From the NCBI GenBank assembly GCA_964416595.1, contig CAYQES010000004.1, forward strand, positions 5,588 to 69,587: a stretch of DNA of 64,000 bases, written 5' to 3'. The position numbers were made by a program, and so were the translations under genes. Under the pieces are notes generated by a model. That model saw only the letters and a list, made by a program, of their open reading frames with translations, was not told the origin of the DNA and ran no database searches. This document shows, piece by piece, positions 23,184 through 26,302 of this stretch. This DNA is from an uncultured Bdellovibrionales bacterium. GTDB lineage: Bacteria > Bdellovibrionota > UBA1018 > CAIPTA01. Numbering within the stretch: the first letter of the stretch is position 1; each line of letters starts with the position of its first letter.

Positions 23184-23214
23184 AAAAGCCAGGGGTTCAA
23201 CCCTGGCTTTTTGT
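23184..23214. terminator. bidirectional intrinsic terminator (AAAAGCCAGGG-gttcaa-CCCTGGCTTTTT)
   Basis: Perfect 7-bp GC stem flanked by A- and T-tracts, between the holA stop (+) and the rpsT stop (-). Confidence 0.7.
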
Positions 23215-23234: not shown

Positions 23235-23504
23235 TTAAGCGTTGGCGGAAGCTAGCGCTTTGTTTTTTGCTTTTTGTAGCCGAGAAATTTTTCTTGCGGC
23301 CCGTCTTTTAGGGATGGATCCACGATGGGCAGCTTTTGCTAGCACAGAAGCGGCCTCGGTCAAGTTGGCAGTTTTTGCGTCCTTACGGATCGACTCCATG
23401 GTTTTTTGCGCAACCGTTTTCACGGCAGAACGGCGGGAACGATTTTGTTCCGTACGTTTGATGATTTGGCGGTTACGCTTCTCGGCAGACTTATGATTGG
23501 CCAT
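23235..23504 (-). CDS. rpsT: 30S ribosomal protein S20
   Basis: MANHKSAEKRNRQIIKRTEQNRSRRSAVKT is the canonical S20 N-terminus; 89 aa. Confidence 0.9.
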   Translation of the reverse strand: MANHKSAEKRNRQIIKRTEQNRSRRSAVKTVAQKTMESIRKDAKTANLTEAASVLAKAAHRGSIPKRRAARKISRLQKAKNKALASANA

Positions 23505-23510
23505 GGATTC

Positions 23511-23918
23511 TTATTCCTCTTCGTCAAATTTGGAAGGTGTCCAAGGATCTTCTTCGTCAGAATCCTCGGTATCGTCTTCGTTATATTCTTCCCAGCTTTC
23601 ACTTTCCTCATCGGTTTCTTCGTCAGAATCCTTCATGGGAGAGAGATTGCGATTTTTCAATTCTTCTGCGCGGAACAAAGAAGAGCCAGCGAATCCACCC
23701 ACAGCAGCGGCTACGGCAGCAGCTTTTTTAGGAGCGGCTTTCTTAGGAGCAGCCTTCTTGGCAGCTTTCTTAGCTGTCTTTTTAGGAGCAGCTTTTTTAG
23801 TGGCTTTTTTAGCTGACTTTTTAGGGGCAGCTTTTTTGGTCGCCTTTTTAGCTGACTTTTTGGGGGCAGCTTTTTTGGTCGCTTTTTTTGCAGTCTTCTT
23901 GGTTTTCTTTTTGGCCAT
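23511..23918 (-). CDS. histone H1-like lysine/alanine/proline-repeat DNA-binding protein with poly-acidic C-terminal tail
   Basis: ATG 23918 is preceded by GGAGAG. The N-terminal 80 aa are (KKA[AT][PK]KK[ST]A) repeats encoded by ~33-bp tandem DNA repeats. The C-terminal 45 aa are DSDEETDEESESWEEYNEDDTEDSDEEDPWTPSKFDEEE. It is co-directional with rpsT and ends 7 nt upstream of the rpsT start. Confidence 0.6.
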   Translation of the reverse strand: MAKKKTKKTAKKATKKAAPKKSAKKATKKAAPKKSAKKATKKAAPKKTAKKAAKKAAPKKAAPKKAAAVAAAVGGFAGSSLFRAEELKNRNLSPMKDSDEETDEESESWEEYNEDDTEDSDEEDPWTPSKFDEEE

Positions 23919-24004
23919 GAACTCTCTCCTAAACATTTGAGTAAAATGGTAAAACTGGGAAATGGCCCCCTCTTCATCCCACGGGGCCTAAAAATTTACA
24001 AGCG

Positions 24005-26302
24005 CTAGTGTTTGAGTTTGTTTATGTCGTCGGAAATCCTGGCGGCCCCATTACCCCCATTGAAACGCTCCAGGGGGTTGGTCCATTGCACGCCAGCCAG
24101 TTGGGGGTCATTGGTGCCTTTGCCCCCGCTTTTTAGGGAGCTAAAGGACACAAAACGCACGGAATAGCCGCTGCGCCCCATGTCCAGACCCAGCTCAGAA
24201 TTGGATTCAATACCCATATTGGGGTTATTCGTGTCGGCTGCGGTCTTTTGGTTGTTCCAGGAAGTTAATTGGCGCTTATAGGGATCTTCCATGCCGGCCA
24301 CGGTGAAGCGGCGGCCATAGGAGCGGGCATAGGCCTGGAGCTGGGGCTCATCGGTGAGCATGGGATCCGGGATATAGTGAAAAATTGTCTCTTTGCTATT
24401 GCGTAAATAACCCTGGAGTAAGCCGAATTTTGCATCGCTTTGTATGATGCTTAAAAACTCCGCGAATCTACCGCTCTCTAGGGATTCCCTATCCTTGGCA
24501 TCGGCCACTAGGTATTGGTTCACTTTGTCGCGGATGAAGCGCAGGTCGTTCCCATTGGTGCCATTCACGGGATAAACCGGGGCCACCAGGGAAAAGAATT
24601 TCCCGCCATACACAGGATTATCTTCAAATTTGCCAATCACATCCTGCTGAAAGTTAGCGGGGGGATTGTAGTAACCGATTTCCCAGGGGGCATAGGCCCC
24701 AGCTAAGCGGGGTCCATAATCTAATCGTCGCAAGGAAACCACAGCGTTCCGTAGGTAACCTAGGTGGGCGTTGGTGGAAAAGCCTCGCTGGTTGGAAGTG
24801 GTATCCCCATCGGCCACAAGCACATTCGGAAAGGCGTAAGAGAAACCGGTGATCTGATCATCCCTGGATTCATTCAAGAAGCTACGGCCCACCTGCGCCT
24901 TACCCAACATCATTTTGAGCATGCCATCATCGGTTTTTTCTGGATTAAGATCCTTGCCCACCCGGCTACCAAAGGGCTTTGCCGCCGAATAGGCCGAAAG
25001 GGTTACGATGCCATTGCCACCAAAGGGGGAAAAAAGGAGACGGGCCTTGGCCTGCAGGCGAACCGCATAGTAGGTGAGCACATTGGGATTTTTGGTAACT
25101 CCAAAAGGAAAGCGGGAAATTACCCGTACTTCCCGGTACTGGCTACAGTTACCGTTATCGCCATTATCAAGGGATTTAAAAAAGGAGTTGGCGAAGGCGG
25201 CTCGGCCCGTAAGATCATCGAACTTGGCTAGGATCGGAGGATTTTTTAAATTGGGATTTTGTTCCGTATTGCCGGGGGTGGTGGGGAGAAGTTCCGTGAG
25301 TTCGATCTCCGAAAAGTTGCCGTTATCCCCAGAAACGGACGGTAAATTATTGCGGGCGCTTAAGAAAGCTTGGATGGGCCGTTCGAAATAATCCAAGGTT
25401 TTATTGGATCCGGCTGGGGCCAAGCCTTTCAAGGAACTCATGGTTTCCTCGGTGATTGTGGCGCTTAGGCCCTCGCTACTGAGACTCATATTCAAGGCTT
25501 CTTCAAAATTATCAATGCGGGCCCGGAGCAGCGCCATGCGGGGTAATACCCCTAGGCGTTCGATGCCATCGGAAAAAGGAAAGGGATCGTCAGAATCATT
25601 GCCCACGGAAAAGAAAGGATCAGCAGCTTTGATAGGATCTAGGCCAAAGAGCCAGGCGATAAGGAATTTCTGATTGATCAAGGTGCGGCTGTAACAGTCT
25701 TCAAGTTTTTTATTGATGATTTGTGAGGTAGCTCGGCGAACGGCGGCCACGATCGGATCCGCTACCCCCCAACCTCCCCCGGAGGGGAATTCCGGAATAC
25801 CCGCCACTTTGTTTTTTTGGCAGTAGTTGTTGTCTTTGTCGAAGATGATGCAAACCGAAGGCAGGTAACTAAAGCCAGGCGCTGGAGGGGGTTCGTTATT
25901 ATTGAATTCCCGGGGATCATCGAACGCAAAATCATAACGGGCATCCGCAGCTGTATTGGTGGTGGCGGCACATTGGGGAATTTTCTGCCCCTGGTGGTTC
26001 AAGGGAAAACATGGCATGGCCACATACTGGCCCCGGGTGGTGTAATAAAACAAAAATTCTTTAAGAGCCCGGCGCATTTCGTAATTGAGGTAGGCCACGC
26101 TCGTGAGCTGGCGGGCTTGGGTAGCGGCACCGGCATAGGCAGCTGCGTCGGCGGCGTTTTGCAAATTGATCTTGGCGTGCACCAACATGCCGATATTGGT
26201 GGTGAAGGCGAACAACAGAATCATCGTGGACGCAAAAAGGGCCATGAAGATGGCCGCTTGTCCGCGCTCTTCTCGAAGCTTACGGGGAACTTTTCGGAGC
26301 AT
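24005..26302 (-). CDS. TadG/TadE-like (Flp/Tad pilus assembly) N-terminal domain protein, 765 aa
   Basis: N-terminus RGQAAIFMALFASTMILLFAFTTNIGMLVHAKINLQNAADAAAYAGA matches the TadE/TadG-like (PF13400-type) membrane-anchored motif. The large extracytoplasmic remainder is uncharacterised. It lies 10 nt downstream of truB on the same strand. Confidence 0.55.
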   Translation of the reverse strand: MLRKVPRKLREERGQAAIFMALFASTMILLFAFTTNIGMLVHAKINLQNAADAAAYAGAATQARQLTSVAYLNYEMRRALKEFLFYYTTRGQYVAMPCFPLNHQGQKIPQCAATTNTAADARYDFAFDDPREFNNNEPPPAPGFSYLPSVCIIFDKDNNYCQKNKVAGIPEFPSGGGWGVADPIVAAVRRATSQIINKKLEDCYSRTLINQKFLIAWLFGLDPIKAADPFFSVGNDSDDPFPFSDGIERLGVLPRMALLRARIDNFEEALNMSLSSEGLSATITEETMSSLKGLAPAGSNKTLDYFERPIQAFLSARNNLPSVSGDNGNFSEIELTELLPTTPGNTEQNPNLKNPPILAKFDDLTGRAAFANSFFKSLDNGDNGNCSQYREVRVISRFPFGVTKNPNVLTYYAVRLQAKARLLFSPFGGNGIVTLSAYSAAKPFGSRVGKDLNPEKTDDGMLKMMLGKAQVGRSFLNESRDDQITGFSYAFPNVLVADGDTTSNQRGFSTNAHLGYLRNAVVSLRRLDYGPRLAGAYAPWEIGYYNPPANFQQDVIGKFEDNPVYGGKFFSLVAPVYPVNGTNGNDLRFIRDKVNQYLVADAKDRESLESGRFAEFLSIIQSDAKFGLLQGYLRNSKETIFHYIPDPMLTDEPQLQAYARSYGRRFTVAGMEDPYKRQLTSWNNQKTAADTNNPNMGIESNSELGLDMGRSGYSVRFVSFSSLKSGGKGTNDPQLAGVQWTNPLERFNGGNGAARISDDINKLKH

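Follow-up and report, generated by a model that had tools for sequence, protein, structure and literature searches.

A predicted disordered protein with an H1-tail-like basic block and a conserved acidic tail, encoded directly upstream of rpsT in uncultured Bdellovibrionota

In a 64,000-nucleotide stretch of DNA from an uncultured Bdellovibrionales bacterium (hereafter the window), a minus-strand gene directly upstream of rpsT (23511..23918, with its stop codon TAA at 23511-23513) encodes a protein of 135 residues that joins an N-terminal Lys/Ala/Pro block to a strongly acidic C-terminal tail. The basic block resembles the C-terminal tail of histone H1 in composition, the tail carries invariant aromatic residues, and the gene precedes rpsT in every lineage of the family. 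The explanation that we tentatively favour is that the product, made in step with growth, would bind DNA or other polyanions like an H1 tail, and that its acidic tail may moderate this binding or recruit a partner. H1-like bacterial proteins as such are established, while the protein described here apparently represents a new, unnamed and unannotated family.

The gene and the architecture of its product

The longest minus-strand open reading frame (ORF) at the locus, given as 23511..23936 in the ORF list, would encode 141 residues, and an earlier interpretation made from the window alone (the sequence-only reading) took it as the gene, with GGAGAG as its ribosome-binding site (RBS). The frame and the RBS hold, the latter being part of the Shine-Dalgarno sequence AGGAGAG (23922..23928, minus strand, read from the sequence), but the first ATG probably does not. 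Translation likely starts at the second ATG at 23918, yielding a product that begins MAKKK, because AGGAGAG would otherwise fall inside the 141-residue frame and because the start of every orthologue is the corresponding M(A/T)KKK, preceded by AGGAG. Strictly between AGGAGAG (23928-23922) and the ATG lie 3 nt (23921-23919), the sequence directly 5' of the start is TTTAGGAGAGAGTTCATGG, and AGGAG precedes the ATG in every full-length orthologue.

Ten independent relatives share the ORF, its three-part layout and its position, which excludes chance as the cause. Codon alignments of the hinge-plus-tail region from 11 lineages gave non-synonymous divergences of 0.03-0.4 for most members and of up to 0.8 for the distant P0040 lineage; at synonymous sites saturation prevails, and where it is computable the ratio of non-synonymous to synonymous divergence (dN/dS) of the tail is 0.09-0.39. 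Since the sense ORF is intact everywhere and the dN/dS of its tail is low, the minus-strand ORF is, on comparative sequence evidence, a real protein-coding gene whose tail is under purifying selection, and the choice of strand in the sequence-only reading is borne out. That the opposite strand (ORF 23497..23940, plus strand, 147 residues) holds the real gene instead, or that the region is non-coding, can practically be dismissed. The antisense frame is open in the window and in L008, which is to be expected because the strand opposite to it is rich in AAR/GCN/GAR codons; however, it is split in L001 (381-683 and 729-902), truncated in L007 and devoid of an RBS, whereas the sense frame is under strong purifying selection and has a conserved RBS.

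The Lys/Ala/Pro block comprises residues 1-65 (23724..23918, minus strand), and with 48% K, 31% A, 8% P and a net charge of +31 it matches the composition of the histone H1 C-terminal tail, as had been proposed. Much of it is encoded by a tandem DNA repeat at 23738..23888 (3.8 copies, 87% matches, Tandem Repeats Finder score 209) that specifies 13-residue AKKATKKAAPKKS units and shows sub-periods of 12, 15 and 27 nt. The repeat period is 39 bp and not the 33 bp given before, and the earlier count of about six units was too high, as the protein contains four 13-residue units, namely three of AKKATKKAAPKK(S/T) and one of AKKAAKKAAPKKA, with partial units on either side. Across eight full-length members of the family, the block measures 54-73 residues with 44-54% K, 23-39% A and 4-10% P and a charge of +27 to +35, while the number and order of the lysine repeats vary freely among orthologues, such that bulk properties are kept and the repeat pattern is not. 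The expectation of a length-polymorphic locus agrees with the comparison of relatives: the close pair L007 and L018 (synonymous divergence of the tail 0.23) differs in the basic block by in-frame indels of 3 nt and 12 nt and by shuffled AKKA/APKK units. In L005 (1-130), the Lys-rich part and the remainder lie in different frames (ATGAAAGGGGACAAAAAAAGC...), which an indel of 1 nt close to a homopolymer run would reconcile; this break may reflect either an assembly error or repeat slippage.

The block is followed by a Gly/Ala-rich hydrophobic hinge of 17 residues, AAAVAAAVGGFAGSSLF (residues 66-82; 23673..23723, minus strand; alignment A3), which ends in SLF, and by the acidic tail of 53 residues (residues 83-135; 23514..23672, minus strand), which with 47% D+E and a net charge of -20 is as strongly acidic as the sequence-only reading had stated. 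The tail contains two Trp motifs, ESWEEY (in the region of 23586-23600) and EEDPWxPSKFDEE (EEDPWTPSKFDEEE). In alignments A2 and A3 of the family, the motifs take the forms E(S/A)SWEE(Y/F)NE and EEDPW.P(S/A)KFDEE(E), and the residues S108, W109, E110, E111, D124, W126, F131 and D132 are invariant or nearly so. The end of the hinge has the conserved core (A)G(V)AGASLF(K/R)AEE (A3), which extends into the start of the tail as (A)G(V)AGASLF(K/R)AEE.(Y/F).EKNR (A2 and A3). The part conserved in evolution is hence the hinge end together with the acidic Trp-motif tail, a point absent from the sequence-only reading. Selection on the tail and its invariant aromatics, as opposed to the repeat indels of the basic block, fits a bulk-charge role for the block and a specific contact for the tail. 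The conserved ASLF was also considered as a β-clamp-binding motif, for which the consensus used for comparison is QL[SD]LF, and this candidate was dropped since ASLF has no Gln and no second Leu.

Among the eight full-length members, the charge of the tail is -17 to -22; in all members it offsets about two thirds of the charge of the basic block, and each keeps a positive net charge (+7 to +17). Positive and negative charges are strongly segregated along the chain, with a kappa of 0.42-0.49 versus ~0.16 in shuffled sequences. AlphaFold2 run with the family alignment returned a mean predicted local distance difference test score (pLDDT) of 55, a predicted template modelling score of 0.11 and no secondary structure, and the protein is predicted to be disordered throughout.

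Orthologues and likeness to known proteins

Ten orthologues were assigned besides the window protein (P0001, P0018, P0019, P0020, P0021, P0040, L007, L008, L017 and L018), all of which come from metagenomes, and the only taxonomically named records among them are metagenome-assembled genomes of Bdellovibrionota. All members have the Lys/Ala/Pro block, a Gly/Ala hinge ending in [ST][LI]F and the acidic tail that define the family; the tail follows the pattern SWEE[YFL] and [DE]D[PS]W..K?FD[DE]E, with P0040 divergent in places (SLDEL; DSW...SFDDED), and the gene lies directly 5' of rpsT and 3' of a TadG-like gene. A word-indexed search yielded one clear homologue, P0001, and otherwise mostly low-complexity matches (SWIB proteins with KKAAPKK tails). 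The family was enlarged only by exhaustive HMMER searching and motif scans: a two-sequence HMMER profile run against 1.84 billion representatives added P0018, P0019, P0020, P0021 and the more distant P0040, motif scans of species-representative genomes added L007 and L008 (titled "uncultured Bdellovibrionales bacterium" and "Bdellovibrionota bacterium"), and those of metagenomes added four further loci (L015-L018). The conserved tail was not found attached to any other domain in a Rosetta-stone test with HMMER among the 1.84 billion representatives. A phage origin was also considered and rejected, as there were no relatives in viral contigs and no plasmid match for the DNA.

Searches against family models gave little for the protein. 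Pfam-A returned no match at E<=1 except a spurious one to CDC27, and no linker-histone, Hc1, HMG-box or nucleoplasmin domain. NCBIfam NF038053 (Burkholderiales H1-like DNA-binding protein), the sole relevantly named model with any match, scored 19.4 bits (E=9.8e-4) against a cut-off of 80 and covered only the low-complexity part, the other NCBIfam matches likewise being of low complexity and below threshold, and a sequence search of the PDB returned noise (E>=0.35). With no family match and no AlphaFold2 fold, the protein therefore stands outside the H1, Hc1, BpH1, AlgP/PhaF, HMGB and nucleoplasmin families. As judged from sequence, it shares its composition with the basic tails of H1, Hc1, BpH1 and AlgP/PhaF, and the idea of an acidic tail with HMGB and nucleoplasmin, so that of the resemblance to these proteins drawn in the sequence-only reading the compositional part stands, while membership does not.

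In HMGB1 and in the pair of prothymosin-alpha and H1, a poly-Asp/Glu segment pairs with a polycationic DNA-binding one, which is known to lower the affinity for DNA and to speed exchange; the mechanism proposed below follows this model. The basic part of HMGB1, however, consists of two folded HMG boxes, and prothymosin-alpha and H1 are separate proteins, whereas here both halves are disordered and reside in one chain of 135 residues. With nucleoplasmin and the acidic histone chaperones the protein has an acidic tract in common, but not the folded oligomeric core. CarD of Myxococcus combines an acidic region with AT-hooks, which are replaced by an H1-like Lys-rich region in Anaeromyxobacter, and thus also unites an acidic stretch with an H1/HMGA-like basic stretch in one bacterial protein. 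CarD carries a folded RNA-polymerase-binding N-terminal domain, though, the order of its charged parts is reversed relative to that found here, and there is no homology. The acidic C-terminal tips of SSB and phage T7 gp2.5 have conserved aromatics that dock on basic surfaces of the protein itself and of its partners; these tails follow an OB fold and end in an aromatic residue, whereas the aromatics of the window protein are internal (SWEEY, DPW, KF) and a folded domain is missing.

The likeness to the H1 C-terminal tail lies in the Lys/Ala/Pro composition, short repeats of the AKKA/PKK type, disorder and a length of ~65 residues, which is a matter of composition and not evidence of homology; unlike H1, the protein lacks a winged-helix globular domain, homology to H1 is not detectable, and its basic block is N-terminal, with an acidic tail in the same chain. 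AlgP and PhaF of Pseudomonas, the KPAA tails of which bind DNA and tether granules to the nucleoid, are likewise bacterial proteins with a disordered Lys/Ala/Pro tandem-repeat block that originates from unstable DNA repeats (PMC9239181). They differ by a folded helical N-terminal domain, a four-residue KPAA unit, and the lack of both an acidic tail and a link to rpsT, while the protein described here has no folded domain and a 13-residue unit without KPAA periodicity. Chlamydial Hc1/Hc2 and the BpH1-type proteins of Bordetella and Burkholderiales are small bacterial Lys/Ala-rich nucleoid condensers (NF038053; PMC2848022), and the repeat number of Hc2 differs between strains (PMC2848022), but none of them has a conserved acidic Trp-containing tail, and the window protein gives no match to Hc1. 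In the literature, no description was found that combines full disorder, a basic block and an acidic Trp tail in one chain, strict coupling to rpsT and restriction to a single lineage of Bdellovibrionota.

Linkage to rpsT and competing explanations

The downstream neighbour rpsT encodes bS20 (89 residues; 23235..23504, minus strand; Pfam Ribosomal_S20p, E=4.6e-17; TIGR00029, E=7.6e-19). The sequence-only reading had placed the gene downstream of rpsT at a distance of 7 nt; it lies upstream (5') on the same strand, with exactly 6 nt between its TAA and the ATG of rpsT. The joint expression that had been expected from this proximity is judged almost certain, and the terminator scan reported no terminator-like site between the two genes. 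The gene stands directly before rpsT in 11 of 11 lineages, with a spacer of 6-7 nt in nine and of 18-25 nt in the P0040 lineage; the in-frame spacing of 6 nt is kept in most, the exceptions being L001 (7 nt) and L010 (25 nt). A candidate Shine-Dalgarno sequence of rpsT, GAGGA (23515..23519, minus strand, read from the sequence), is found 10 nt before the rpsT ATG within the last Glu codons of the upstream gene, which ends in GAC GAA GAG GAA, and GAGGA(A/G) occupies the corresponding position in L005 and L006 and comes just past the stop codon in L001. The location of the candidate GAGGA in these last codons points to translational coupling, and translation of the gene is probably coupled to that of rpsT. 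The gene arrangement thereby largely shows that expression is tied to ribosome synthesis, while codon usage gave no discrimination of the expression level. At the junction (23502-23525, minus strand), rpsT is in the frame of the upstream gene, two sense codons (GAA TCC) after the TAA, and read-through of the TAA would yield a fusion in which bS20 follows the protein and a Glu-Ser linker.

On the explanation tentatively put forward here, in which the protein binds DNA or other polyanions and its tail limits that binding, an abundant, fully disordered "diblock" protein would be made, and its Lys/Ala/Pro block would bind polyanions non-specifically in the way of an H1 tail. The acidic tail may fold onto the basic block of its own chain or reach that of a neighbouring molecule, and would thus compete with the polyanion in cis or in trans; binding would become weaker, fast-exchanging and salt-sensitive, as in HMGB1, and head-to-tail networks or coacervates would become possible. 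In addition, the two Trp-acidic motifs and the terminal KFDEE could serve as docking sites for a specific partner, and the invariant Trp and Phe positions suggest such an additional specific contact. Synthesis would follow ribosome production, with the gene at the end of the rimP-nusA-infB-rbfA-truB cluster and coupled to rpsT. In Escherichia coli, ihfB is co-transcribed with rpsA and ihfA with pheST, and by these precedents a position in a translation operon is compatible with a nucleoid protein. The likeliest polyanion would be chromosomal DNA, neutralised and compacted by the basic block, because AlgP, PhaF and the Hc proteins behave in this manner (PMC9239181, PMC2848022). The nucleoids of Bdellovibrionota are very compact, and the compacting agent is not known (bioRxiv 10.1101/2025.09.24.678257). 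Binding to DNA or other polyanions, autoinhibition by the tail and condensation are all plausible from composition.

Several points weigh against a role of this kind in the nucleoid. A Lys/Ala/Pro block binds any polyanion, rRNA and polyphosphate included, and a nucleoid role leaves unexplained why the gene is so strictly linked, with translational coupling, to rpsT in every lineage. The family is tiny, amounting to five 90%-identity clusters among 5.8 billion, with a sixth member, P0020, from the HMMER search alone, and to 2 matches in 185,579 species genomes for one narrow motif pattern. It was not seen in cultured Bdellovibrio and is therefore not a general component of Bdellovibrionota chromatin, and the published list of nucleoid proteins of B. 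bacteriovorus holds nothing like it.

The main rival is a ribosome-linked role, which accounts best for the invariant linkage to rpsT and which we regard as a serious, if somewhat unlikely, alternative. The basic block would bind 16S rRNA or precursor particles and the acidic Trp tail, mimicking rRNA, would hold the very basic bS20 from its synthesis to its delivery, which would make the protein a dedicated chaperone or assembly factor; otherwise it might be a lineage-specific ribosome-associated factor. Such a role would suit the position directly before rpsT in all lineages, mostly at 6-7 nt and with the rpsT Shine-Dalgarno sequence in or next to the last codons, the fact that the gene closes the ribosome-biogenesis and translation cluster rimP-nusA-infB-rbfA-truB, and the conservation of a tail that has the traits of a short docking motif. 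Partners are typically made in roughly equimolar amounts and at one place, as coupled translation provides, and here it would supply the protein and bS20 in this way. However, we know of no dedicated ribosomal-protein chaperone in bacteria, the +31 block is far bigger than a chaperone needs, and bS20 is here an ordinary protein of 89 residues. A single-sequence AlphaFold2 model of an artificial fusion of the protein to bS20 is weak evidence that says little for or against the ribosome-linked role: bS20 reached a pLDDT of >90 and the tail remained at 51-62, with no induced structure or docking signal.

The close spacing to rpsT could further be read to mean that the ORF is mainly a translated leader, which delivers ribosomes to the rpsT start or opens it, with the peptide being of little account. 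The 6-nt spacer, the rpsT Shine-Dalgarno sequence inside the last codons and the common reading frame would agree with this, but a leader would not preserve layout and tail residues, whereas the ORF is 135-148 residues long with a conserved three-part layout, its tail shows the low dN/dS given above, and the invariant Trp and Phe positions lie distant from the rpsT start; a mere leader is thus highly unlikely. We consider it decidedly unlikely, too, that the protein is a granule or condensate tether, in which the basic block would organise storage granules by binding polyphosphate or by linking it to DNA: the repeat composition matches that of AlgP and PhaF, whose repeats are needed for granule spacing and DNA tethering (PMC9239181), but there is no folded N-terminal domain of the AlgP/PhaF type, no ppk or pha genes occur nearby, and an acidic tail would repel polyphosphate. 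A single-pass membrane protein, with a cytoplasmic Lys-rich N-terminus in agreement with the positive-inside rule, a membrane-spanning hinge and a periplasmic acidic tail, is very improbable. The window protein, L008 and P0021 have an uncharged hydrophobic Gly/Ala/Val run of 17-23 residues, but the run measures only 15 residues in P0001 and ~9 in P0040, Lys breaks it up in L007 and L018, and a transmembrane hinge was rejected because the length of the run is not conserved. The hinge is moreover Ala/Gly/Ser-rich and only marginally hydrophobic, and AlphaFold2 with the alignment shows no helix at this place.

Bolder versions of these ideas, in which the protein is a self-chaperoned linker-histone analogue for the histone chromatin of Bdellovibrionota, or its tail the first dedicated bacterial ribosomal-protein (bS20) chaperone, are unlikely. 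As a linker-histone analogue, the protein would bind DNA between histone-coated segments through its H1-like block, and compaction would be controlled by the Trp-acidic tail, which can be likened to prothymosin-alpha, HMGB1 and the "aromatic anchor" motifs found in histone chaperones, through binding to the bacterial histone or to the basic block of the protein itself. True histones and extreme nucleoid compaction in Bdellovibrionota are under current study, with no report from this phylum of a partner of the linker or charge-buffering type. The occurrence of true histones there, and of a nucleoid hyper-compaction that has no explanation yet, makes the protein worth an experiment. A good proteotypic peptide is DSDEETDEESESWEEYNEDDTEDSDEEDPWTPSK. 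If DNA binding is true, nature would offer in this protein a minimal model both of polycation-DNA binding regulated by a tail and of diblock-polyampholyte condensation; if binding to bS20 or rRNA is true, it would be a new kind of bacterial ribosome-biogenesis helper.

Neighbouring features and related observations

Between truB and the gene, the otherwise classical rimP-nusA-infB-rbfA-truB cluster contains a TadG-like gene (24005-26302, minus strand; 765 residues), in which only an N-terminal TadE/G-like (pseudopilin-type) segment is recognisable. This insertion recurs in L001, L007, L008, L010, L016, L018 and a 313-kb contig of the Joint Genome Institute (JGI), and wherever the contig is long enough the gene studied here follows 3' of a gene for a protein of 750-765 residues with such an N-terminal segment. 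The window and the 313-kb JGI contig both have the order rimP-nusA-infB-rbfA-truB, TadG-like gene, the gene studied here and rpsT. Beyond rpsT, holA and lptE are convergent wherever the contig extends far enough, and in the window a GC-rich, bidirectional hairpin resembling an intrinsic terminator and flanked by A-runs and T-runs (23184..23211; terminator scan) is common to the two convergent units, plus-strand holA and the minus-strand unit of the gene with rpsT. NusA of the window falls into a 90%-identity cluster together with sequences labelled as metagenome-assembled genomes of Bdellovibrionota and Bacteriovoracia, which makes an uncultured member of Bdellovibrionota the most likely source of the DNA.

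The products of holA, rpsT, truB, nusA, rimP and the TadG-like gene of the window are present in a collection of 15 billion proteins, all on one NCBI contig of 140,961 bp. No exact match was found in this collection for the 141-residue, 135-residue or internal-start products of the gene, for the antisense ORF or for the other-frame ORFs of 23511-23940. Since the products of the neighbours are there and none from 23.5-23.9 kb is, the gene was probably left uncalled in the source assembly, and this gap suggests that low-complexity genes of its kind can escape gene calling.

The intergenic region of 86 nt between the TadG-like gene and the gene studied here (23919..24004, minus strand) was aligned for six lineages (window 23919-24004, L007 3705-3802, L018 281-378, L016 170-267, L008 3682-3775 and L004 84-181). 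It contains the conserved blocks TTGTAAA, directly after the stop codon of the TadG-like gene, YCRTGGGAWGA, also written YC(A/G)TGGGA(A/T)GA, and ATTTYCCGAGTTTT, which are followed by the RBS; in the window, a GGCCCC...GGGGCC hairpin surrounds the second block. No Rfam family matched in the leader or gene region, RNAalifold and RNAfold gave no covariation-supported helix for the upstream region, and the promoter scan found no sigma-70-like site. The blocks could belong to a promoter or operator, or to an mRNA leader.

The KKAAPKK module is joined to other C-terminal modules in unrelated bacterial proteins, for example in SWIB/MDM2 proteins (P0002, P0005-P0016), which fits a portable nucleic-acid tether, and the H1-like tail seems to have been reused widely as a module. 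An N-terminal KKAAPKK-type tail with a composition nearly identical to that of the basic block described here occurs in numerous bacterial SWIB/MDM2-domain proteins of ~130 residues (P0002, P0005-P0016, P0055-P0131) and also in a few glyoxalase-like and peroxiredoxin-like proteins. In a looser class of small metagenomic proteins (P0003, P0008, P0015, P0023, P0024 and P0047; loci L009, L013, L014 and L019), the layout is the same: the N-terminus is rich in Lys, a Gly/Ala hinge follows, and the acidic tail ends in ...GYF. Its genes do not adjoin rpsT, that of P0047 being located on a phage-like contig beside a DNA ligase gene and that of P0023 beside an outer-membrane-protein gene, and the class may consist either of distant homologues or of convergent proteins.

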